Shown here one piece after another: positions 2,525 through 62,440 of a stretch of DNA of 64,000 nucleotides; within the stretch, counting starts at the first letter, position 1, and every line of letters starts with the position of its first letter. The position numbers were made by a program, and so were the translations under genes. The notes beneath the pieces were generated by a model that was not told the origin of the DNA, ran no database searches, and was given only the letters and a program-made list of their open reading frames with translations. Origin of the DNA: Octopus vulgaris (taxonomy: Eukaryota); contig OX597820.1 in NCBI GenBank assembly GCA_951406725.2, positions 126,728,001 to 126,792,000 on the forward strand. The letters run 5' to 3'.

Positions 2525-3645
2525 AAAACTTAGATAAAACTTAGATATGTTTCGACCAGAGATTGGTCCAGGCCATGTCTAACTTAATAGCACCACCTGA
2601 TAGGATTATTCGAATCCTGTTTAAGTCAAGTTTTGTTCAAGTAGTGAGTTCTTGTTGGGTGAGTTGTATCCAGTTTTGTTCAAGTAGTGAGTTCTTGTTG
2701 GGTGAGTTGTATCCAATTATGGGTGGCTTATCTGGTATTCTTTGAAGGAATCTATCCAGACTCTGTTTGAAGTTGATGGGATCCTTTTCCTCTTTGATCT
2801 CCCTCGGGACAATGTTAAATAGGGCAGGGCCTGTTGAGGAAAAGAAATTATGTTGCAGTGTACATGTATGTTGTGATCTTGAATTTGGCAGGGGACGTAT
2901 AGCCCGTGGTCCAAGTCTCGGATGAACCTTGAAGCTAATGTTTAGGTCGTTTGGGCAAAGTTGGCGGTATATTTTCCACATCATACAAATGATGTACCGC
3001 TCACGGCGACGCTGGAGGGAGTAAAGTTTCAAGGCTTTAAGGCGATCCCAATAGTTGAGAGCAGCCATGTCTTCAATTTGTTTAGTGAGAGCCCTCTGGG
3101 GTGACTCAATTCTGGAGATGTTTTGTCTTGTGTGAGGAGACCACAGTGGGCAGCAGTATTCAAGGTGTGGCCGTACAAAGGATGAAAAAAGTGGTATGAT
3201 GACACCTTGTTCTCTGGACCGGAAAGTTCTTAAGATCCAGGAACTCATCCTACGAGCTGTATCGACCTTCTTGTTGATGTGTGCACTCCAACTGAGATCG
3301 TCATCAACAATTACACCCAGGTCTCTGATATTGTTAGAGGCTGTGAGCGGTTCCCCTGAAGGAAGAGAGTATGGTTGTTTTAGTGAGGAATTTCTTCCAA
3401 AATGCATCAGCTCAAATTTTCCCTCATTCAGTTGCATTTTGTTTCTGTCTGCCCATTGACTCACAGCATATAGGTCAGACTGGAGTTGAGTTCGGTCTGC
3501 TTCTTCATTGACGATTTGCTGGAGCTTAGTGTCATCAGCGAATATTTTCACTTTGCAGTGATGTACGACACTGGAAAGGTCGTTTACATAAATTATGAAG
3601 AGTAGCGGACCCAAAACAGTTCCCTGGGGAACACCGCTGGTGACT
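2525..3645 (-). mobile_element. 5'-truncated CR1/L2-group LINE
   Basis: RT ORF (below), a short 3' UTR and a tandem tail (TCTAAGTTTTA)2 on - abutting (TA)n. Confidence 0.9.
2637..3644 (-). pseudogene. Reverse transcriptase C-terminal half (CR1-like ORF2), open for more than 330 codons
   Basis: VTSGVPQGTVLGPLLFIIYVNDL, FADDTK, RDLGVIVD, VRPHLEYCCPLWSP and YSLQRRRER motifs. Lacks the endonuclease and N-terminal RT. Confidence 0.92.
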
Positions 3646-3724
3646 ATATGATGATGATGACGATGATGATGATGATATATATGTGTATGTATGTATATAT
3701 ATGTATGTATGTATGTATGTATAT

Positions 3725-3860
3725 CATCATCATCGTTTAACGTCCGCTTTCCATGCTAGCATGGGTTGGACAGTTCAACTGGGGTCTGGGAAGACCGAAG
3801 GCTGCACCAGGCCAGTCAGATCTGGCAGTGTTTCTACAGCTGGATGCCCTTCCTAACGTC
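3725..3860 (-). mobile_element. 3' UTR fragment of RTE-type LINE with (GAT)n tail
   Basis: catcatcgtttaacgtccgctttccatgctagcatgggttgg...ggatgcccttcctaac matches the 3' end of 47631-48483. Similar pieces at 4185-4320, 20545-20690, 27895-28030, 55795-55860 and 63880-63980. Confidence 0.85.
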
Positions 3861-4793: not shown

Positions 4794-4889
<96 letters not shown>

Positions 4890-5245
4890 TAGATAGATAG
4901 AAAAAAGTCATCAGAATTTTGGAAAAAAATCCTTTCATTTCTTCATTATTATTAGCACTTTTGTTCCTTTCTAGATAGAACTTGTCAAATAAGATTTTAT
5001 TTGACAAGTTCTAGAAAGGAATGAAGGCGCTAATAATAATGAAGAAATAAAAGGATTTTTTCCAAACTTCTGATGACTTTTCTCAATATATATGTGTGTG
5101 CGTGTGTGTATATATATATGTGTGTGTGTGTGTGTACATTTTCTGTATTAAATGTATTTAATATTTTTTGTATATCGACTTGCCTAACTTGCTTGTTTTT
5201 CTCTACCTGCTCAAGTTTAAACTTCTTGAGCACTACCTGTCTCTA

Positions 5246-5382: not shown

Positions 5383-5452
5383 AACCACCTGAAGAATGAC
5401 TGTAACACGAAAATTTTAAAAATTGAACAGCCATGAAACGATCGTAGTGTTA
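5383..5452 (+). ncRNA. Type I hammerhead ribozyme motif
   Basis: AACCAC CTGAAGA ATGACTGT..ACAGCCAT GAAA CGATCG TA GTGTT. Palindromic stem III, GUA site. Confidence 0.75.
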
Positions 5453-5865: not shown

Positions 5866-5938
5866 ATGCAGCTGATGAGGATAAATCAAGTATACGTTTG
5901 GCAAGCGTATTTTGAAAAATCTGAAACCAGTACTGCAT
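5866..5938 (+). ncRNA. Type I hammerhead ribozyme motif
   Basis: ATGCAG CTGATGA GGAT..(TCAAGTATACGTTT/AAGCGTATTTTGA)..ATCT GAAA CCAG TA CTGCAT. Perfect 6-bp stem I. Confidence 0.8.
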
Positions 5939-7202: not shown

Positions 7203-7240
<38 letters not shown>

Positions 7241-7244
<4 letters not shown>

Positions 7245-8856
7245 GGGGGTAAATAAGTATTCGTACATGTCAAAATTCTTTATTTATCTAATTTCTAATG
7301 AACATAAATGGGATATACCAATACTATATTTGCATACACATGCATAAACTAAGAATATGCAAAAGAAACTAATAAATTATAGTAACTAAGGAATTTATAT
7401 ACAATTATAAATATTTAGGGGTGAAAAAAGTATTCGTACAGAACATAAATAACTGATAATTCTGATTTAATACTTCGTAGCATAACCATTATTCAGTTCC
7501 ACTTCAACCAATCTCTTCTTGCAGTTCTTTAATCAATGACTCGCATGTTTCTTTAGGAATTTTTTCCCATTCTTCTTGACAAATTTTCTTCAAATCTGGA
7601 ATTCACGTTGGGGCTCTTGAATGAATTTTAATTTTCAAATAACGCCACAAATTTTCAATGTGGTTCAAGTCAGGTGACTGGCTTGGCCATTCTAATAAGT
7701 TTATATTGTGATCGACAATCCATTTTGTGGTAGACTTCGCCGGTGCTTAGGGTCGTTATCCTGTTGTAAAACCCACCCTTCACAAAGCTGGAGCTTTTCT
7801 ACAGAGTCCGATAAATTATTATTTAAAATATTTTGGTACATCTCTGCATTCATTCTACCATCTATCACATGTAAATTGCCAGTACCATTTGCAGAGAATA
7901 CACCCCCACACCATGATGTTGCCACCTCCAAACTTTATGGTAGGAATTGTGTTTTTCGGCGAATAGGCAGTACCATCTTTCCTTCAAACATGGCTACGCG
8001 AATTTCATTCAAACAATTCAATTTTCGACTCGTCTGTCCATAGAACATTTTCCCAGAATGTATCAGGTTTATCTTTATGTTCATAAACAAATTTTAAACG
8101 GGCATCTCTATGCCTTTTAGTCAACAGCGGAGTTTTTCTGGGAGAGCATGACTTCAGTCCATTTCTATGAAGTTCATTGCTGATTGTTCGTAGCGTAACA
8201 TTAGTCCCTGAAGCTAACAAATCTTCTTGCAACTCTTTTCTGGTGATCATTGCGCTTTTTTTTTTTATTCTTCACTTCATTTTTCTTAAAGATCTAGGAG
8301 AAATCTTGCATGGTGCACTGGATCTTATTCTGTTTTTAACAGTTCCCAATTTTTTATATCTTTGAATAAATGAAGATATTGTAGAAAATGGAATACAAAG
8401 GGTCTCTGATATTTTCCTGTAACTTTTACCTGCTTTCCACTGTTCAATAATTAAGTGTTTTCACTGTATTTGTGAGTTCTTTACTTTTCGCCATTATTAC
8501 GATATCACTTTATGTTGTCTCTGTCCTGAATGAAGAAGCTAGCGTTTTGACACTTAAAAATGACAACTGATAAGATTATTGGAACAAACGAGAAAGTTCT
8601 AGTAAAAAAAAAATTATTTTAACAGTATTTTGTGGCATAGAAAATCATAAATTTATTCTATACAAATACTTTTTTCACCCCTAAATATTTATGATTGTAT
8701 ATAAATTCCTTAGTTACTATAATTTATTAGTTTCTTTTGCATACTCTTAGTTTATGCATGTGTATGCAAATATAGTATTGGTATATACCATTTATGTTCA
8801 TTAGAAATTAAATGAATAAAGAATTTTGACATGTACGAATATTTATTTCCCCCCAC

Positions 8857-8858
<2 letters not shown>
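7241..8858 (-). mobile_element. Full-length Tc1 (DD34E) transposon with about 205-bp IR/DR-type TIRs and a disrupted transposase (about 7467-8494)
   Basis: 7241-7443 is the reverse complement of about 8655-8858. Sits in (TA)n. Motifs [29 protein letters not shown] and GYATKY*. Frameshifts present. Confidence 0.95.
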
Positions 8859-8922
<64 letters not shown>

Positions 8923-13371: not shown

Positions 13372-14760
13372 ACAGAAGTAAATAGACACCCTTATAATCA
13401 TTAAAATTTATTTAAATCTGAATCTATACATTCAAATTATTTTTTAATTATCATAATGAGAATATCTGGTATTTAGTAAACATTCTCTTTGCATTTTTCC
13501 ATGCAAGGTCCTGTAAGTCAGGCTACTGATCAGATGAGGAATATTCTCTTGCAGAATCTCAAAAGATCTGGTTTTGAAGATGCTTTCTTGTTCTTGTTAC
13601 AAAGTGTCCTGTCCATTATGCCCCAGAGGGGTTCAATAAGGTGACTGGCTTGGCCATGGAGTTTCTAATGCCATTCTTTTCCAACCAATCTTGGGTTATT
13701 TTAGCCATGTGACAAGGAGCCCCATCTTCCATAACTAAAGAGTTTTCTTTAATCATTTCACTATTGGAGAAGATTGGAAGGAGTCCTTCCTGTAATATGG
13801 ACACATTTATCTGAGTTTATGTTTCCTATTTCTTTATTACCCACAAGGGGCTAAATATAGGGGGGAAAACAAGGACAGACAAAGGGATTAAGTCAATTAC
13901 ATCAACCCCAGTATGTAACTGGTATTTAATTAATCAACCCCAAAAAGATGAAAAGCAAAGTCGACCTCAGTAGAATTTGAACTCAGAATGTAACGGCATA
14001 CAAAATACCACTAAGCATTTCACCTGGCGTGCTAACGTTTCTGCCAGCTTGCTGCCTTAAGTTTATGTTTCCATCACACTCCACCAGCTCTGATTGACCA
14101 TTGCTCTAAATTGCTCTCCAGACCATCAAAGAATAGATGCTGTGTTTCATTGTTGACAGCAACTTTTTCATGTCAAATTCTTGATCACAGAGTCTCTAGA
14201 CCCACACTTGACCACTGTTAGAAAATACAGCAAATCTGGACTCATCAGAGAATGTGATAGTGTCCGAAAATGCTAGTGGCTACTCCATCATCTCACTGGC
14301 CTAATCTTGTCTCCGCTTGATGTTGGCTGGTTGAAGAAGTGGCTTCTTTCTTGCTGCTCTGTCATAGTAGCCAAGTTTGTGGAGATACCTGACAGCTGTT
14401 CTGGGATTGACATCAACCTGTTCTACTATGTCTGAGGCCTTGCAATGAGGATTATCCTCCACGCTTCTCTTAACAAAGCAAAGGGTCCTGTTAGAGGACC
14501 CTGGTCGACCTGGGCAAGGTGAGGTGGACTCCTTCTCCTCTCTGGTGAATTGCACAATCACCCTATTAACTATAGAAAGTAGGGTCCCAAGGTTTTCTAC
14601 AATTTTACACTAAGTCAGCCTACAGATTGACCCACAATAAGGTCTCTTTGAAATTTGGGACAGTTCCAAGGCTTCTTTTGTACATGGCATAATTAAACAG
14701 TCACATGTTGATCCTAAAACATAAAAATGTCCATTAATAAAAAATATGTATAGTATTAAA
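13372..14760 (-). mobile_element. Degenerate Tc1-family transposon interrupted by a SINE
   Basis: HTH region RTAVRYLHKLGYYDRAARKKPLL, then ITFSDESRF, MEDGAPCH and WPSQSP motifs, with many stops. Boundaries approximate. Confidence 0.85.
13827..14059 (-). mobile_element. tRNA-derived SINE family B (Meta-domain-like core) with 13-bp TSD
   Basis: TSD agtttatgtttcc at 13814-13826 and 14060-14072. Core gaggtcgactttgc.tttcatc.ttt.ggggt.gat. Confidence 0.9.
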
Positions 14761-15537
14761 TATCTATCATGGCTGATCTAACCAATTGGTTTCATGTAAA
14801 GAATACAACAGAGTGTTCGGTAATAATCCAATTATATAACTTTACGCTCATCAGAGTTAGCTGATATGGGAAGGAGTATGGCAACTGCTGTAGGCACTTA
14901 ATGCAGTCAGCTTAGGCCTTTAGCCCAACTGGTTTTGAGTAGTATCTGAGAGGATTGGGCGAGAGACTATGTGGGCATTCCAGACTCCAACTGAAGAAAC
15001 AATTGCCTGCGAATGATCCGTGTATCTTGTTTTGTCCTGTTTGTCATGTTGTGCTATTGTCCTTTTCCTGCTTGTTATGTTTTGACGATTTCCATTTATG
15101 TTTTTTACCTTTGATTTATTCATGAAGTGCTATGTGCAATTTAGAGTTTGCTTTGTAAAACAAGATATTCCTTGGATATTACGTACGACTCTCACCCACT
15201 TTCCATCGCTTTTCTCCCTTTTCTCTCTTAATCCTTCCTTCTCTCTCTGTCTCTCTCTCTCTCTTTTATCTTTATGTATATATACATGTGTATACATATA
15301 TATATATATATATATATCAAATAGCCTTGTCACTCTCTGTGTCACGCTGATTATACTATAAGGGTATGGAATGCTCAGCTATTTGCACGTTATTCACGAG
15401 CAAGCTGTTCCGTTGATATCAGGATCGTCGTAAAGTCTTTATATATATACTACTAATATAGGAGCTTTTTACAGAAAAAAATTCCATCAAAAAATGTGAC
15501 AGCATATTAAAATACCTTTAAGGTTAAAATTATAAAC

Positions 15538-15787
15538 AACTTATAAATAAGGGCTAAAGGAAATTATTTCTATGCCAATATGCTGATAACAGACTTTTAA
15601 ATCGTCAATTTCCACATATTTACTCGCTACAGAAAAATTTTTTTTTTAATTCTATTGGTTGGCTTTCCTTGATTTCAGCTCTACGTGTTTTCTGTAGCGA
15701 GTAAATAATATGCGGAAATTGACGATTTAAAAGTCTGTTATCAGCATATTGGCATAGAAATAATTTTCTTTAGCCCTTATTTATAAG

Positions 15788-15789
<2 letters not shown>
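15538..15789. repeat. Inverted repeat (about 100-bp arms, 51-bp spacer) at the end of a (TA)n-flanked element
   Basis: 15538-15636 is the reverse complement of 15688-15789 with few mismatches. Confidence 0.9.
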
Positions 15790-15836
<47 letters not shown>

Positions 15837-16405: not shown

Positions 16406-18050
16406 TTGCGTCGGAAATTAATTAGCACTTCTCAAATTTCTACATTTTCTTACATTTTCTTAATTTAATTAACTTATTATCAGAAACGAACTCGTTTGTA
16501 ATCAAAAATTTATTAAAACATATCCCAGCACACCACATAATTGTTATTAATCGTGAAATTTAGTCAATATCTTGTTGCTCCTCCTTTGGCAGCAATGACA
16601 GCTGCTACGCGGGTCGGCATGCTGTCTATGAGTGCCTGCAGGTACTGTGCAGGGATGGCCCTCCATGCAGCAAGAAGTGCCCCAAACAGCTTGTGTTGGT
16701 TCAGGTCAGGTGACTGGCCAGGCCAGTCCATGACCGTCACCCAATGGTCCTTGAAGAAACCGGTTGTGAGCTTGGCTGTGTGGGAAGGCACGTTGTCCTG
16801 CTGGAGCACGTACTCCTCGCCACCAAAGAGGTATCCCGTACTATCTCAACGTACTTTGCTGCGTTGATGTTGCCTTCGACGGCATAGAGCCGCCCAACAC
16901 CACTGTAGCTGAACGCCCCTCACACCATCAGACCACCCCCACCATGCTTCATGGTGAGAGCAATGCAGTCTTTGTTGAAGCGCTCACCCCTGCGGCGTCG
17001 CACATGGACAGGCTTGTCACTGACGAGACTGAATCGTGACTCGTCAGTGAACATCACTGTCCACCACTGCTGCACGGTCCATGTCTTGTGGGCACGGGCC
17101 CAGAGCAGCCGCCTCTTCCAGTTTTGGGCTGTAAGGAGCAGCTTATGGGCGGCCCTACAGGATTTTAGACCAGCTTCCAATCTGGTCTTGACGGTGGTTG
17201 TAGACAACTGCTTCCCTGTCATCTTTTGCATCTCCTCCGCCAGTTGCCGGCTCATTGCCCTTCGGTTGTACAGTGACTTTCGGATCAGCATCCGGTCCTC
17301 CCGCTAGGTCGTCAGCCTCTTCCGTCCCCTACCCTTTTTGTCAGCTGCTGATCCGGTTTCCTCGTATTTCTTAAATAAGCACTGAATTGTGCGCCTGGCT
17401 ACACCAAGTTTTCTGGCTATTCCAGCCTCTGACAGCTTCCCACGCCACTAGAGAGCCTCGTACCGTCTCTCCAATGTCATGCGAGGTCTTGGGCCCATCT
17501 AGGAATGAACGATAAAAACCAGTTATTTTCATTTAAAATATCCATTTGAATAATGTTATGCTATAACAAAACTGCTATGAGTTATTATTCATTAAACAAA
17601 AAAGAAAGAAAGCAGAATTTCTCACCTTATTTGATGTATAACAGAAAGTTTTGTGAACCAGAAGTGACGTCATCAAGCAGAGTGTAGGAGAATTTGTGAG
17701 GAAAAAAAATCTTGCAAATACACAAATCAATTAACCTACGAGCTGTTCAAAACGTCTTACGCGATGAGAAAACTTAGTACGGTGTGATTTCGGTCCTTGC
17801 GAGGCGCTACCTATATCTATTAAACAAAGGAAGATTTGTCTGCATCCGCACTCCAAGTTGTTGTTGCACTGCTATGTCAACATCATTAGGCTGTAGACTC
17901 TCAAACTGCTCTGCAAACAAAGTTACGTCATCGTTCTGCGCAACAGTGAACTCACAACAAAGCAATAGTTCGAGATATGGCCACTAGGTGACAGCAAATA
18001 CCTTGAGTGAAGAGAAAATCAAGGGTGCTAATTAATTTCTGACGGTAGTG
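16403..18050 (-). mobile_element. Tc1-family transposon with 26-bp TIRs, TA TSD and a disrupted transposase (16564-17498)
   Basis: TIRs CACTTGCGTCGGAAATTAATTAGCAC / CACTACCGTCAGAAATTAATTAGCAC. Motifs MFTDESRF, KHGGGGLMV, QQDNVPSH, WPGQSPDLN (following E region deleted) and GGATRY*. Confidence 0.93.
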
Positions 18051-20393: not shown

Positions 20394-20486
20394 TGTGGCT
20401 GAAGAGAGCCTTAAACCATCTTTTATATCTATTATACACTGATGTAAGAACGGATTATTTATAAAACTTGAAACACATGTACCGCG
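20394..20486 (+). ncRNA. Type I hammerhead motif
   Basis: TGTGG CTGAAGA GAGCCTTA...TAAAACTT GAAA CACATG TA CCGCG. Confidence 0.7.
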
Positions 20487-28239: not shown

Positions 28240-28925
28240 ATCTGTCCCAACCCCACCATCATCGAATCTGCATCAAATTTTGCCAAACTCTTGGTGATAC
28301 CTACTCAGAGGCTAATGCCAAGTTTTCAAAACGTTTTCATCGTTCTCGACACAATCAAGAAAATCTTGTGCAACTGAAACGGGAGTGTCTTTTTGGTCAG
28401 TTGAAAGCAGTTTTGCCACAAACTTGGCAGACATGCATCTCACACCCAAATCTTCAGTGATAATGGACTGAACTGAACAGTAAATAATCTGCACATCCTC
28501 TGATAACTCACATATGGTGATTTGATGATTTCCTCTCACATCTGCGATGTTTTACTCAGTTCTACTGGTTGGAGGTCTCCCAGAACGATCGTCACTATCA
28601 ACATTTTTGCCACCATCTTGGAAACATCTGAACAACTCATACACTTGTGCACAGCTCATGCACCACTCCCCATACACTTTCTGCAACTTTGTATAAGCCC
28701 CTGAGCAGGTATCGCCATGACAACTTTCTCTATCATGGTCAATGCAACAATCACACGCTACACACCTTCCTTCCAAGTACTGCTGTAAACAGCGGAAGGG
28801 AGCTAGAATCTTAAAACTTAGTGTGCATGTATAGCAGAGCTCAAGGTCAATCTTTGCCAAGCAGCTTCACTTTTTAGCTTTGTCACTATGGTAACAGTCC
28901 GGATACTTATTGATCAGACCGTGTG
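28240..28925 (-). mobile_element. Mariner transposon 5' half (N-terminal HTH region, pseudogenised)
   Basis: YTKLQKVYGE..MS..QVYE.FRCFQDG..NVDSDDRSGRPPTSRTE and AKFVAKLLSTDQK. Terminus ggtctgatcaataagtatccggact. Confidence 0.88.
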
Positions 28926-45249: not shown

Positions 45250-46030
45250 CACATTTTCTTTTTTTTTTGCCAAATAAACAAACGCACAATATATTCATTT
45301 TTCACTTCAGCTTTATTATTCAGTTCTATATTTAAGAGATGAGGAATTATGTACATTTTTTACATTATTTACAAATGACGGATATTTGTCCTCATCTTGT
45401 TTGTTGTTAACATAATGTTTCGGCTGATATACCCTCCAGCCTTCATCAAGTGTCTTGGGGAAATTCCAAACCTGGGTTCTCATTCCTAAGGTATTTTTCA
45501 ATGTTGTTATTATTATTATTATTATTCACGTCACTGACCAGAATCGGACTCGGAATCTTGGGGTTAGTAGTCCACTAAGTGATATGCCCGTGCGCTTTTC
45601 CCAAGACATCTGATGAAGGTTGGTGGGTGTATCAACCAAAATGTGTTAACAATAAACAAGATGAGGACAAATATCCATCAATTGTAAATAACATAAATAA
45701 GCTTTATCATTGTTCTTGTTTTATGTCCTTTGTCCAGAAATATTTTGTGACACATCTGTGACCTCTTAAGTGACTGTCCATGTCTCCTGCTGTCTTGTTT
45801 ATTTCACTCTGTTTCTTTGGTGTCTTTCTATGGTGTGTCAGACCACAGAAAGGCAGAATGGACTAAACAGAACAGGAGACACATATGATGGAGAGTCGCT
45901 GAAGAGGTCACAGGATGAGTGATGAAAGATTTCAGACAAAGATCACTAAAATAGGAACAATGATAAAGCTGGAGTGAAGAGCAAGCATAAAGTACATGAG
46001 TTTATTTGGCACACACAAAAAAATGTGACT
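45250..46030. mobile_element. Old foldback (inverted-arm) element carrying hammerhead motifs, with its left arm interrupted by 45321-45699
   Basis: 45250-45320 joined to 45700-45810 is the reverse complement of about 45865-46030. Motif GTCG CTGAAGA G GTCAC..GTGAT GAAA GAT TTC AGAC at 45895-45937. Confidence 0.7.
45321..45699 (-). mobile_element. tRNA-head / hammerhead-tail element (family D), copy 1, with inverted tail copy
   Basis: TSD agctttat(t/c)att at 45309-45320 and 45700-45711. tRNA-like head 45525-45592 (-). Hammerheads at 45409-45454 (-) and 45605-45647 (+). Confidence 0.85.
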
Positions 46031-51355: not shown

Positions 51356-51754
51356 TACTACTACTACTACTACTATTATTATTGTTGTTGTTGTTATTTT
51401 CTTATAAAATCATTATCATTCTTTTTTTAACACACAGGAGACATAGCACTCCACAGACATTGTATCTGTGTCTCCAGACAAGTCAATTCCATGAATGTGT
51501 TTCTTTCCAAAGAAAAGAGAGTTCTTCCTGCTGAAGCTCCCCAAGATGTCTCCTGGCCTGCTTACGTTGCTGCTGTTTTGCCCAGCTGCTGCCTGCAGCG
51601 ATTTACATGCAAGAAACACGAAAGAAACACCCACCATTCTTGCCATCAGATGAGCACTCTCTAAGTTCGGGTTCAGAAATATTAACCCAATTCTTTTTCA
51701 AATTGAAGCCAGCCATGTTCATTGCTACAACAGACCCAACACCTTTAATGAAAG

Positions 51755-52220
51755 GGATCTTTTCGCTTTGAACGGCAGTTTTTTAAAATAATTTCCATGT
51801 AACTAAACACTTTTAAACTTCGTATACTGGTAGAATGTGTTTATAAAACATCTTTTTCTCTTGGCTTTATTGAGAAAATTCTGTAGTTTGTAAGCTATTT
51901 GTTGTTTAATTTCTTGCATTTCGGCAATTTCAACCAATCAATGACGTCTATTGAGGGGAATACAATAGAGGTGAATACAGAAAATGTTGTTGACAAAGAA
52001 CTGGAGAAATTGTATTCCCCTCAATAGACGTCATTGATTGGTTGAAATTGCCAAAACTGCAAGAAACTAAACAACAAATAGCTTACAAACTATAGAATTT
52101 TCTCAAGAAAGCCAAGAAAAAGAGATGTTTTATGTAACACATTCTACCATTATACAAAGTTTAAAAGTGTTTAGTTACAAAGAAATTATTTTTAAAATCT
52201 GCCGGTCAAAGCGAAAAGGT
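51755..52220. mobile_element. Foldback MITE built from two left ends of the 61842-62233 element
   Basis: Arms 51755-51966 and 52009-52220. Starts GGATCTTTTCG.TTTGAACGGCAGTTTT. Confidence 0.88.
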
Positions 52221-52351: not shown

Positions 52352-52380
<29 letters not shown>

Positions 52381-52382
<2 letters not shown>

Positions 52383-52970
52383 TTGGTGAATTGAAGAAAT
52401 GGAGCTGAACGCAGATTGAACAGAAATCGTTTTATTTCATTCTACACGTGTTTCGAAAGGCACAATTTACCAAAATCCGATTGAATAATGGGACCATATT
52501 GTGTCTTTCTCTTCAGGAAGAAATAGGAAATCCATTGGAAAAAACAAAAACAGAACAGAGGCGGAGCAAAACAAATCGAACTAGGCTCCTAAGAGCCCAT
52601 GGCGAAACTAGTTCGATTTGTTTTGCTCCGCCTCTGTTCTGTTTTTGTTTTTTCCAACGGATTTCCTATTTCTTCCTGAAGAGAAAGACACAATATGGTC
52701 CCATTATTCAATCGGATTTTGGTAAATTTGTGCCTTTCGAAACACGTGTAGAATGAAATAAAACGATTTCTGTTCAATCTGCGTTCAGCTCCATTTCTTC
52801 AATTCACCAATAATATTTTAATTTCAATTATCCGCACCAACGCACGGTTGCAACACCATATGGTTGTACCTCCAACCGTGCTGTTTACTGCTGTGATTTT
52901 TGCTACCAAGGTATCGGTTAAACTTTTGATTAATCTACTACAAGATTATTCATCTTTCTATTTCACATAA
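52381..52970. mobile_element. (TA)n-embedded Penelope-like terminal structure: near-perfect inverted repeat of about 203 bp plus a one-sided extension
   Basis: 52382-52584 versus 52608-52811, 23-bp spacer, about 2 differences. Confidence 0.9.
52667..52760 (+). ncRNA. Intact type I hammerhead ribozyme (mirror copy at 52433-52525 -)
   Basis: TATTTCTTC CTGAAGA GAAAGACACAA..TTGTGCCTTTC GAAA CACGTG TA GAATGAAATA. Confidence 0.85.
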
Positions 52971-52989
52971 TATATATATATATATATTG

Positions 52990-53229: not shown

Positions 53230-53882
53230 GTGTACTGTTCCATGATGGTAAGATCAACAGAACTCCATTTGGTGAGAGATAAATATTATATATTCAAATA
53301 TGTTTTTATATTCTACTATTAGTTTCATATGCTGAGAGCATGCCAGACAGTATCTTTTAAAACGTTTGGTGTCCTAGCACAATCATCAGGCACAGCTCAC
53401 ATAGCATAGTGAAATAAAAATGGGACAAGAAGGGAGAAAAGTTGAGTGAAGGCAAGAAAGTAGATATAAAAGGTGGAAGGTTGAAAAACTGGAAGACGAA
53501 GAAAAAAACAGAAAGAAGCAAAAGTGGGGAATTAGAGTTGTTTCCCATAAGACCATAAAATATAAGGCTGAAAAGACAGTGGCATAGAGTCTGTGGTACA
53601 GTTCTACTACAGACTCTAAGCCACTATCTTTTCAGTACAGCATTATATTGGGGCGTGGAGTTTAAAGATTCTGCTGATGATACTTGTGTCTATGTTTATA
53701 ATAATAGCTTGGGGTGGTTGGAATCTCTATGGTTATAAACAGTTTCCTCAATGGGAGTTCTATAGCAGTAGCCCTTGCTTGTCTTAAAGTCTAGGATTAC
53801 ATTCAGGAAGTTGATCTTTATTAAGATTAACTTTCTGGATGAAATGTTATAATTATTTGATTGGTACATACATAAAATACAA

Positions 53883-54032
53883 CTTTATTTACATTATTTA
53901 CATTTGACGGATATTTGTCCTCATCTTGTTTGTTGTTAACACAACATTACAGCTGATATATACCCTCCAGCCTTCATCAGGTGTCTTGGGGAAATTTCGA
54001 ACCTGGGTTCTCATTCCTAAGGTATTATTATT

Positions 54033-54064
<32 letters not shown>

Positions 54065-54115
54065 TATCATCATCATCGTCATCATCATCATCATCATTAT
54101 CATTATTATTATTAC

Positions 54116-54149
<34 letters not shown>

Positions 54150-54969
54150 GAGTGAGAGAGCAGTGCATGCCATCAAAGTGACACTGGGGTAAAATATACG
54201 AAGCCCAATATACCCATCATGACTACATGTCTGATAAGGGTACACCAGGCACATGCATCACAACCATATGTGTGCGACATGGTGATCTCATATCAAGATA
54301 AACAGCACATGACCTTGCAGGTGGGGCCCAGTTAGAATTTTCTTCAGGTTGAGTAGCCCATCCCGCTCAAAAGGTCCCTGAATAAGGGTTGTTTAAGGAT
54401 GTTGAAAGAACCACCCATGTTTCCAGAGGTGAATTGTTCAAACCCCAAAGAATCCCTCTCAACACATGGCTATGATGCTCCCCCACTACTTCTGCTCATG
54501 ATCAGAGATGCACATATCGTCAGCCAATAAGGGACATGCTCAACTGGTTAAGGTCAAACAACTGACAAGCAAATCTGTGGTATTGAGCAGAATATTTGCT
54601 GTAGCCCATCTTTTATACCAAGACAAAACAACGTACATGATAACACTTCCAATCAGTTAAGATCAGAAGACATGAGAGCAACTGCCTGGTACTGCATCAT
54701 TATCATTATTATTATTATCATTATTATTATTATTCAGGTCACTGACTGGAATGGAACTCAGAATCTTGGGGTTAGTAGCCTGCGCTCTTAACCACTACAC
54801 CATATGCCCAGGTTCGAAATTTCCCCAAGACACCTGATGAAGGCTGGAGGGTATATCAGCCGAAACATTGTGTTAACAACAAAACAAGATGAGGACAAAA
54901 AAAAAAATCCATCTAATGTAAATAATGTAAATAATGTACATAATTCCTCATCTCTTAAATACAGAACTG
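53883..54969 (-). mobile_element. Family D element, copy 2: inverted tail, tRNA head, (AAT)n linker with nested insert, hammerhead tail
   Basis: TSD taaaatacaa at 53873-53882 and 54970-54979. Head 54733-54809 (-) with TGGTGTAGTGG and GAGTTCCATTCC boxes. Hammerheads at 53938-53985 (-) and 54829-54874 (+). Confidence 0.88.
54148..54700 (-). mobile_element. Retroposon 3' fragment ending in (AAT)n, nested in the family D linker; partial copy at 34755-34925
   Basis: Shared aaacccc/aaaagaatccctct...ctgtgg.attgagcagaatatttgc. Confidence 0.7.
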
Positions 54970-54990
54970 TAAAATACAATTGTTTGAAAT

Positions 54991-57514: not shown

Positions 57515-57785
57515 ACATTATTTACCTTATTTACATTATTTACATTTGACGGATATTTGTCCTCATCTTGTTTGTTGTTAACACAACGTTTCGGCTGATG
57601 CACCCTCCAGCCTTCATCAGGTGTCTTGGGAAAATTTTGAATCTGGGTTCTCATTCCTAAGGTATTTTTTGATGTTATTGTCATTATTATTATAAAAACA
57701 AAACAAGATGAGGACCAAAAAAATCCATCAAATGTAAATAATGTAAATAATGTACATAATTCCTCATCTCTTAAATAAAGAACTG
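57515..57785 (-). mobile_element. Family D element, copy 3 (5'-truncated in the linker, inverted tail piece), inserted in a SINE A tail
   Basis: TSD tag(g/a)gttgattt at 57503-57514 and 57786-57797. Confidence 0.85.
57580..57625 (-). ncRNA. Intact family D hammerhead motif
   Basis: GACAC CTGATGA A GGCTG gagggtgcat CAGCC GAAA CG TT GTGTT. Confidence 0.82.
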
Positions 57786-58429
57786 TAGAGTTGATTTGTT
57801 TGACTAAACTCTTTGAGGTGGTGCCCCAGCATGACCCCAGTTCAAATACTGAAACAAATGAAAGATAAAATTGGTAATACAAGGTGTTGTAGAAGACATG
57901 CCCACCAAGGCAAATGCAGATAAATATTTATTATATTAAAGTGACAGAATATACAAATGGCATTCCATCAGTTATGAGTCATTCTTTTCTAAGAGGCAGC
58001 CTCTTACCTTTACCTCACACCTGTCACTTTCTATCTAATTGCCATGCCCAACCCACAATATTCCTAACATATTTTCCTTTTATTTCTTTTTCTATTGTTG
58101 CTTCGAATACTTCTATTCTTTTGCCATGGCCACCTACGTTCTTTATTTCAAAAACTACCTATTTTGTTTTTTTATTCTTTTACTTGTTTCAATCATTTGA
58201 CTGCAGCCATGCTGGAGCACCACCTTTAGTCAAACAAATTGACCCTAGGACTTATTCTTTGTAAGCCTAGTACTTATTCTATTAGTCTCTTTTGCCAAAC
58301 TGCTAAGTTAAAGGAACGTAAACACACCAACATCAGTTGTCAAGCGATGGTGGGGGGACAAACGCAGACACATAAATACATCTATAAATGTGTAATGGTG
58401 TCTGTGTGTGTGTTTGAGGTTACTCTAAC

Positions 58430-61089: not shown

Positions 61090-62440
61090 TTGCAAAATCT
61101 AGGATCTTACACTGTTTCTTCATTCTGTCCTCTGTGATCATATTTGATCATTTTGCTTCAATAGTATGTTCAGATTTATAGGGAAATCTCACAAGATCTT
61201 GTAATTCTCATTTTCTATCATGGTATCTGCTTCTTGATCAGACCACTTTTCTGTTGTTTTGAAGCCCCACACTATTCCAATGTAAATGGAGCTAAAATGC
61301 CAATGTACTCTTTTGCCTATACAATCATGTCCACACTCATACTCTTTTTGTGGTGGTGTACTGCACTCATTCAAAAGGTGATTGATACTTTTGTCTTCTT
61401 TCTTGCAGATTCTACACTTGCTGTCAAATTTTTTTTTTTAAGTATTTGCCTTTATTAGATTGGTTCTAAGGGCTTGTTCCTGAGTGGCTATAATCAGTGT
61501 TTCTGTCATTTTTAGTTCCCATCCATCAATCAAAGCCAGCAATCTTTACTTCCAACATTCTCAATTTGTTGCATGAATTGACCATGTAATTCTATTTGTT
61601 TGTTCTCTGTTAGTCTTCCTTTTCTCCTTGAATTCTTCTACTTTTTCGGTCACTTTTCAGGTATCTCTGGCTGCCAATATTCTTTCTTTACTCTGCACAA
61701 CATCAATTTCCAGACCTAGTATTGCGGTATTAACAGTGTCTTCTGTGTTTAGTCATTCTCTACCATTTTCAACTCTTGATAGGTTGAGTCAGTCAATGTT
61801 GCTTTTAAGGTGAAGTGCACTATGCATGGTCAGCAACTTTCGGATCTTTTCGGTTTGAACGGCAGTTTTTAACATAATTTCTAGGTCACTAAAAAATTTT
61901 AAACTTCGTATACTGGTAGAATGTGTTTATAAAACATATTTTTCTCTTGGCTTTATTGAGAAAATTCTATGGTTTGTAAGATATTTGTTGTTTTTTTTCC
62001 TTCAATTTCTGCAATTTCAACCAATCAATGACATCTATTGAGGTGAAAAAACATTCTGTGCCGTATGAATATGTCCCTCGTTTAAGAAACAGATTTGTGA
62101 AGAAAAAAAGATACCCTTCCCCCCACCCCTAAAACAGATTAAAATGCAATAGATCAATACTAGGGTCATAATTATGGGAGACAATTTCATATGACACTGC
62201 TAGAAAAAACTGCTGTTCAAACCGAAAAGATCCCAACATTCTAATTTTTCCATCCAAGTTCTGCAGTTTGTCCATTATTGAGAGGGAACAGAATATCTCA
62301 ATACTAGCAAAACCCACGTATTTATGGCTTTTAAAGATCTTCTCTCCATTAAACCTTGTTTTGAGCACCTTCACAATTCTCCTCTTGTACTCTATAGTGA
62401 CCTCCTCTCTAATATATCCTTCCATTATCCTCTCATCTTA
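61090..62440 (-). mobile_element. Degenerate Dong/R4-type LINE (restriction-like endonuclease class), split by a MITE
   Basis: EYKRRIVKVLKTRFNG, RKLLTMHSALH, LHGQF, IIATQEQALRTN, knuckle CRICKKKDKSINYLLNEC, HDCIGKRVHW and ENENYKIL*DF. Confidence 0.82.
61842..62233. mobile_element. 392-bp MITE with about 29-bp TIRs starting GG and an 8-bp TSD (Merlin-like)
   Basis: TIR GGATCTTTTCGGTTTGAAC(G/A)GCAGTTTTT. TSD caac(t/a)ttc at 61834-61841 and 62234-62241. Removal restores DGKIRKLLTMH in the LINE. Confidence 0.88.

Follow-up and report, generated by a model that had tools for sequence, protein, structure and literature searches.

A probable head-to-head Penelope-type fragment with two outward-facing hammerheads in Octopus vulgaris

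A head-to-head layout is already well known for Penelope-like elements (PLEs). Craig et al. describe PLEs in which an inverted, 5′-truncated copy adjoins the 5′ end, as well as a tail of 30-40 bp at one end and an insertion bias toward (TA)n (PMC8557442). Penelope-13_HM appears in the tables of that paper with an inverted 5′-truncated copy and one hammerhead per strand; also listed is an Octopus element of the Hydra clade that prefers (TA)n. Cervera and De la Pena reported dual hammerheads in Schistosoma that lie on opposite strands, 100-700 bp apart (PMC4209133), and Arkhipova et al. described head-to-head inverted pLTRs with palindromes at the junction, which they read as self-priming (PMC3846280). 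Biochemical work on an anole PLE protein has shown that it cuts AT-rich DNA and both nicks and extends the two strands in vitro, and that the PLE tail is delimited by two internal RT start sites (PMC11167929).

Metazoan PLEs also carry dimer-type hammerheads; in vitro, single motifs showed no cleavage and dimers showed weak cleavage (PMC4209133). The double hammerhead of this type is likewise described in a review (PMC6765202), which reports SINE-like elements from Schistosoma that combine a promoter with a hammerhead.

Here we describe a foldback located in a 64,000-nt stretch of Octopus vulgaris DNA (contig OX597820.1, positions 126,728,001 to 126,792,000), which we call the window. The locus most likely represents a genuine and comparatively young PLE-type insertion, truncated and arranged head-to-head, and it adds one more insertion of a known type. 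It is probably a short, fairly recent PLE scrap composed of two back-to-back copies of a ribozyme-bearing end, and it is probably inert.

Anatomy of the foldback and its hammerheads

The element is bordered by two unstranded microsatellites, (AT)13.5 at 52355-52381 and (AT)9 at 52970-52987, which represent the left and right parts of its target. The left run sits at one end of an older repeat, for which the window holds 16 further matches. The left arm (52382-52584, 203 nt, minus strand) is an inverted, 5′-truncated copy of the element's 3′ end, and the right arm (52608-52811, 204 nt, plus strand) is the sense copy. Between them lies a 23-nt spacer (52585-52607), and the right arm is followed by a one-sided 3′ extension (52812-52969, 158 nt, plus strand) that contains a hairpin at about 52839-52885. 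At its outer end, the left arm reaches 61 nt beyond the cleavage site and is AT-rich next to (TA)n. The arms are 99.0% identical, differing by one homopolymer indel and by one substitution (52534/52658), a CpG transition (CG versus TG). The sequence of the left arm is contained entirely within the right copy, and the inner ends of the two copies are at most ~20 nt apart.

This architecture agrees with the original prediction, which had described arms of about 203 bp with about two differences, a 23-bp spacer, an extension of about 160 bp with its own hairpin, and (TA)n on both sides. The extension folds more stably than its shuffles (z -3.4; 2/500 equally stable), and the named hairpin by itself is less marked (z -2.1; 16/500). 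The spacer is more than neutral filler: it is structured and holds a partial hammerhead and a junction hairpin. Self-BLAST of the 64-kb window revealed no second copy of the element, and there is no direct repeat or pseudo-LTR partial tandem within it. A truncation this short would not be expected to retain a pseudo-LTR tandem, and the lack of one limits our claim to a "PLE-type fragment," which we assign to no clade. When former contiguity of the two flanks was probed via flanking repeats, 0 adjacent pairs were found.

Each arm carries a type I hammerhead. The left-arm motif occupies 52433-52525 on the minus strand (C3 at 52516 and N17 at 52443, with approximate outer limits for stem I), and the right-arm motif occupies 52667-52760 on the plus strand (C3 at 52676, predicted cleavage at the GUA site after 52750). 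The two thus face outward from opposite strands, and the divergent orientation originally predicted is upheld. Both have the core CUGAAGA, a stem II of 55-56 nt closed by G10.1-C11.1, GAAA, and the GUA site. Stem I is 9 bp and bulged in both arms, and stem III has 1-2 bp within the 8-nt palindrome ACACGUGU. In the right arm (plus strand), the parts are the core at 52676-52682, stem II at 52683-52738, GAAA at 52739-52742, and the palindrome at 52742-52749. A full hammerhead descriptor finds six sites in the window, two of which are the arm hammerheads, compared to a mean of 0.04 (maximum 1) in 100 window shuffles, and therefore the motif is not a product of chance.

We considered and rejected a canonical, monomer-active type I hammerhead. 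Rfam yields no matches across the whole window at the gathering score, and none of its 39 matches at E≤10 between 51500 and 53500 belongs to a hammerhead family; these are mostly miRNA models fitted to the long hairpin. According to the folding model, the hammerhead monomer makes up ~1% of the ensemble, and the stability of the region resembles that of shuffles (38/200 equally stable). Two copies are predicted to co-fold as a double hammerhead via the 8-nt palindrome, with 12.9 kcal/mol gained over two monomers. As judged from this modeling, the arm hammerhead is the dimer type of metazoan PLEs, with a conserved core and a swappable short palindromic stem III. The original description of a canonical hammerhead in each arm thus holds for the full core and GUA site, and the word "canonical" does not survive the long stem II, the 1-2-bp stem III and the lack of Rfam matches.

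A stretch that reaches from the spacer into the right arm (52591-52613, plus strand) is the 3′ portion of another type I hammerhead, distinct from that of the arms, and consists of A6-N7-G8-A9, a 3-bp stem II, GAAA, a 6-nt palindromic stem III, and GUU. The start of its core (C3-U4-G5) and its stem I are interrupted at the junction, and because the hammerhead is broken there, we infer that the element is 5′-truncated. This remnant precedes the main cleavage site by 137 nt, and its stem II and palindrome differ from those of the arm motif, leaving nothing in common beyond the core. A descriptor composed post hoc, after the motif had been seen, matches only this site on both strands of the window, with 0/20000 matches in element shuffles and a mean of 0 in 50 window shuffles. 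Overlapping the remnant is the junction hairpin (52584-52597, plus strand; 5 bp, 4-nt loop), which is a candidate snap-back point. An equally long hairpin from the same base occurs in 264/20000 spacer shuffles (1.3%), which makes it modestly unlikely.

It is conceivable, albeit unlikely, that the parent element carried two different tandem hammerheads 137 nt apart that act as dimer partners in cis, and that the upstream one stalls the RT and triggers the snap-back. Behind this proposal stand one junction and the post hoc descriptor, and the stem III palindromes of the two motifs match each other only in part. If true, a parent of this kind would connect the hammerhead with how head-to-head inversions arise in PLEs. 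A search of mostly open-access literature, excluding Repbase, returned no description of the present hammerhead family or of a PLE end with two different hammerheads. The family may already be among those listed by Lunse et al. (RNA Biol), whose work is covered in a review (PMC6765202).

Origin, age and route of insertion

A Penelope-type origin is well supported, not proven, by the anatomy, the published precedents, and a second family, also in the window, whose ends are those of a textbook PLE. Among the PLE traits present at the locus are an inverted 5′-truncated copy joined head-to-head, an AT-rich or (TA)n target, and a type I hammerhead in sense orientation near the 3′ end, where "sense" is defined by the hammerhead itself. 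The one-ended tail may have a counterpart in the one-sided extension, which measures 158 nt versus the published 30-40 and is known from a single copy in the window. The original prediction of a recent Penelope-type insertion is thus backed by anatomy and precedent; set against it, the window contains neither a PLE ORF nor a second copy. Pfam detects no GIY-YIG domain or PLE ORF in any of the window's 259 frames, where it finds one LINE RVT_1, one zf-RVT, and Tc1/mariner domains. An open frame of 72 codons in the element (52752-52967, plus strand) has no coding relative that we could find: 0/27 candidate protein relatives and 0/302 matches in a GTDB pattern scan were upheld. We rejected this frame as the start of a PLE ORF, as its two remaining matches are unrelated tandem-repeat proteins, and also rejected a KwaB-like match (E 0.045, below the cut-off). 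BLASTN of the element against phages and plasmids gave no match.

The second family comprises three loci (45314-45700, 53882-54976 and 57517-57810), each with a hammerhead-bearing 3′ end plus an inverted truncated copy. All three have the head-to-head layout with a tail of ~35 nt on one end only. Arm identity is 83-87% at the two loci measured, which indicates that head-to-head foldbacks are genuine and recurrent in the window. Only one arm still matches the hammerhead descriptor (57620), and the third locus has lost the hammerhead from its right arm. Members combine a tRNA-like head with an (AAT)n run and, as their 3′ end, a minimal hammerhead. Words resembling an A box and a B box are present in copy 2 and a weak A box alone in copy 1; ARAGORN found no tRNA in the family. 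We regard this family as a candidate PLE-mobilised SINE, and our literature search returned no cephalopod description of a SINE like it. This tRNA-headed family may be a more interesting lead than the present element.

The surrounding window is AT-rich, dense in microsatellites and filled with repeats, among them a LINE RT fragment, remnants of Tc1/mariner elements and numerous short interspersed copies. Six more hammerhead-like cores occur at 5389 (+), 5872 (+), 7026 (-), 14854 (-), 16158 (-) and 20399 (+). Their sequences are unrelated, and several have a long stem II and a palindromic stem III; those at 5872, 7026 and 16158 match the strict descriptor, and the core at 20399 is within a short insert between (TA)n runs. 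Just upstream of the element is a MITE-like foldback (51759-52218) whose arms are 92% identical and that has a half copy at 61842-62047. Shorter foldbacks at 4849-5133 and 15531-15796 (arm identity 86% and 94%) sit beside microsatellites, and no hammerhead was detected in any of these foldbacks. A Tc1/mariner remnant at 7206-8893, situated between (TA)n runs, has inverted repeats of ~245 nt (94%) and fragments of a broken transposase, and further remnants are near 14304-14610, 16612-17447 and 28555-28866. The LINE-type RT fragment (2637-3755, minus strand, 372 codons) has best relatives that are 41-69% identical, three of which are from ctenophores. No host gene was identified within the window by the frame profile and one exon search. 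A unique-looking stretch at 51419-51788, which follows a polypyrimidine run, has several overlapping open frames and is a possible host exon; one frame of the candidate exon (51419-51697) found 0/81 relatives.

The element is the youngest of the inverted pairs measured, with 99.0% arm identity versus 83-94% in 6/6 others. "Very young," as originally predicted, is apt relative to these neighboring foldbacks and less so in absolute terms, since the 95% interval for divergence, based on two differences in 204 nt, is 0.12-3.5%. At assumed, not measured, rates of 1e-9 to 1e-8 per site per year, this corresponds to 0.06-18 My, or near zero if both differences are copying or sequencing errors. The true age could be hidden by arm-to-arm conversion, and two differences in 204 nt are no evidence of a still-active partner. 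Preserved CpGs had also been predicted, and the CpG observed/expected ratio is indeed high in the element (1.08 versus 0.40 for the window; 4/159 400-nt windows are as high). As a sign of youth the ratio fails: two of seven comparison regions, both older repeats, have values of 1.05 and 1.14, and the sole substitution between the arms is a CpG transition. Octopus transposons are also little methylated (PMC9476566). CpG retention is therefore uninformative regarding age, and we rejected it as an age marker.

The maker would be an endonuclease-bearing PLE, or a non-autonomous element that borrows PLE enzymes, and the insertion would be a dead-on-arrival product. Given PLE target preferences, the GIY-YIG domain might first nick the (TA)n run. 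The RT would then prime at the right end (52969) and copy ~380 nt of the RNA 3′ end, passing the hammerhead and stopping within the core of the second, upstream one, an extent that is observed in the sequence. The cDNA end might next fold at the junction hairpin, skip ~11 nt, and copy itself for 203 nt; as sketched, such a fold-back has a loop of 4 nt and a bulge of 11 nt. Finally, microhomology in AT-rich sequence may let the strand join the left target end while it is still 158 nt away from its start. The outcome would be the two outward-facing hammerheads. A left arm contained within the right copy, with converging inner ends, is what fold-back of a nascent cDNA predicts.

If the origin is a PLE, we lean somewhat toward self-priming by fold-back, consider two independently primed cDNAs a plausible second choice, and leave a small share to other routes. 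In twin target-primed reverse transcription, which has the same PLE origin and is tentatively possible as an account of the locus, separate cDNAs would be primed from both target strands, with RT starts at the equivalent of 52811 and at 52969, and their 5′-truncated ends would be joined via microhomology. The nicking and extension of both strands in vitro and the two internal start sites (PMC11167929) speak for this route, as do, by eye, the similar pyrimidine-rich runs that precede the AT-rich junction at both outer ends. Furthermore, neither arm of copy 2 in the second family contains the other, so two RNA-templated cDNAs, or later trimming, are needed there, and twin priming may operate in this genome. 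At the present locus, however, two independent truncations would have to coincide within ~20 nt, and published tails are a quarter to a fifth as long as the extension. Consequences for dating differ if a single 5′-truncated insertion was later palindromised by replication template switching, since arm-to-arm conversion would keep the arms alike and 99% identity would not date the element. We hold this to be improbable. The short inverted repeat at the junction and four local foldbacks without a detected hammerhead fit such an event, but the host flank is neither duplicated nor inverted, the left arm halts exactly at (TA)n, and the layout is the usual primary product of PLEs.

Readings that dispense with a PLE fare worse. 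The short, non-coding, inverted arms in a TA context could suggest a MITE or foldback DNA transposon, yet terminal inverted repeats are absent and the termini differ by the 158-nt overhang on one side. The two hammerhead motifs that share one strand at a distance of 137 nt, near the low end of the 150-450-bp retrozyme unit (PMC7229834), could instead mark a piece of a non-LTR retrozyme array, except that no tandem unit was found and the motifs are alike in core only; we consider either origin quite improbable. A chimeric inverted read, arising in assembly or library preparation, is very improbable. Inverted repeats do trouble short-read assemblies (PMC8557442) and a homopolymer indel accounts for one of the two differences between the arms, but the arms are not identical, the sequence past the right arm is not a mirror image of the left flank, and the second family has the same layout at an arm identity that is impossible for an artefact.

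Predicted RNA folding and significance of the locus

The original prediction held that a transcript could fold either as the ribozyme or as a 200-bp dsRNA that blocks it. Our folding model contradicts such a two-state switch, and we find it hardly credible that the element is a functional one. Because the motifs face outward, the antisense arm is transcribed ahead of the sense hammerhead on either strand. The full-foldback hairpin is ~120 kcal/mol more stable than the hammerhead fold, and the pairing probability of the hammerhead stems is <1e-49 in both read-through directions. Each strand also offers only one complete sense hammerhead, while this type needs a partner. In favor of a switch, both cores are intact, and a transcript that starts at 52660 retains stem II (P 0.99) and, in part, stem I (P 0.26). 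In a single arm transcribed from 52608, by contrast, stem I has P 7e-5. On this model, only transcripts that start inside the right arm would free the motif, and they would still need a partner in trans. A read-through transcript is likely to form the 200-bp hairpin that keeps the ribozyme off, and the only activity of the element, if transcribed, would likely be as a passive source of dsRNA.

As a single copy, this truncated insertion in a hammerhead-rich window matters little. Its near-intact 3′ end could be used as a probe for a young PLE family and its master copy. Junctions of sister copies could separate fold-back from twin priming.

Comparison with known systems

Non-LTR retrozymes resemble the element as short, non-coding metazoan repeats with type I hammerheads that are proposed PLE derivatives (PMC7229834; bioRxiv 10.64898/2026.07.22.740005). 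As described there, they are direct tandem repeats of one unit, whereas the locus is an inverted pair without a tandem unit. The Penelope families of Adineta vaga share head-to-head inverted pLTRs of ~180-220 bp and junction palindromes (PMC3846280). In those families, the inversion lies alongside a unit that carries an ORF and has a 9-10-bp target duplication; here, such a duplication would be invisible in the (TA)n sequence. The template proposed by the authors is an antisense RNA, as opposed to a cDNA that folds back.

The dimer-type hammerheads of metazoan PLEs correspond to the arm motifs in the full core, the G10.1-C11.1 pair, the stem III of 1-2 bp with a palindromic loop, and the predicted dimer. 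They differ in that stem II is longer here and has no unpaired base on its 5′ side. By eye, the stem II of 55-56 nt contrasts with short stems in all Hydra rows tabulated in PMC8557442, and the hammerhead of the Octopus Hydra-clade element listed there is unlike the present one. Relative to the Hydra-clade PLEs in that source, the locus lacks an ORF, has an extension of 158 nt rather than 30-40, and carries part of a second hammerhead upstream. The hammerheads are about 165 and 320 nt from the ends, compared to a Hydra-clade range of 87-425 nt that we computed by hand from the same tables. With the EN+ PLEs of clades that target (TA)n, Hydra and Neptune (PMC8557442), the locus shares a head-to-head truncated copy, opposite-strand hammerheads near the 3′ ends, (TA)n flanks and a one-sided extension.
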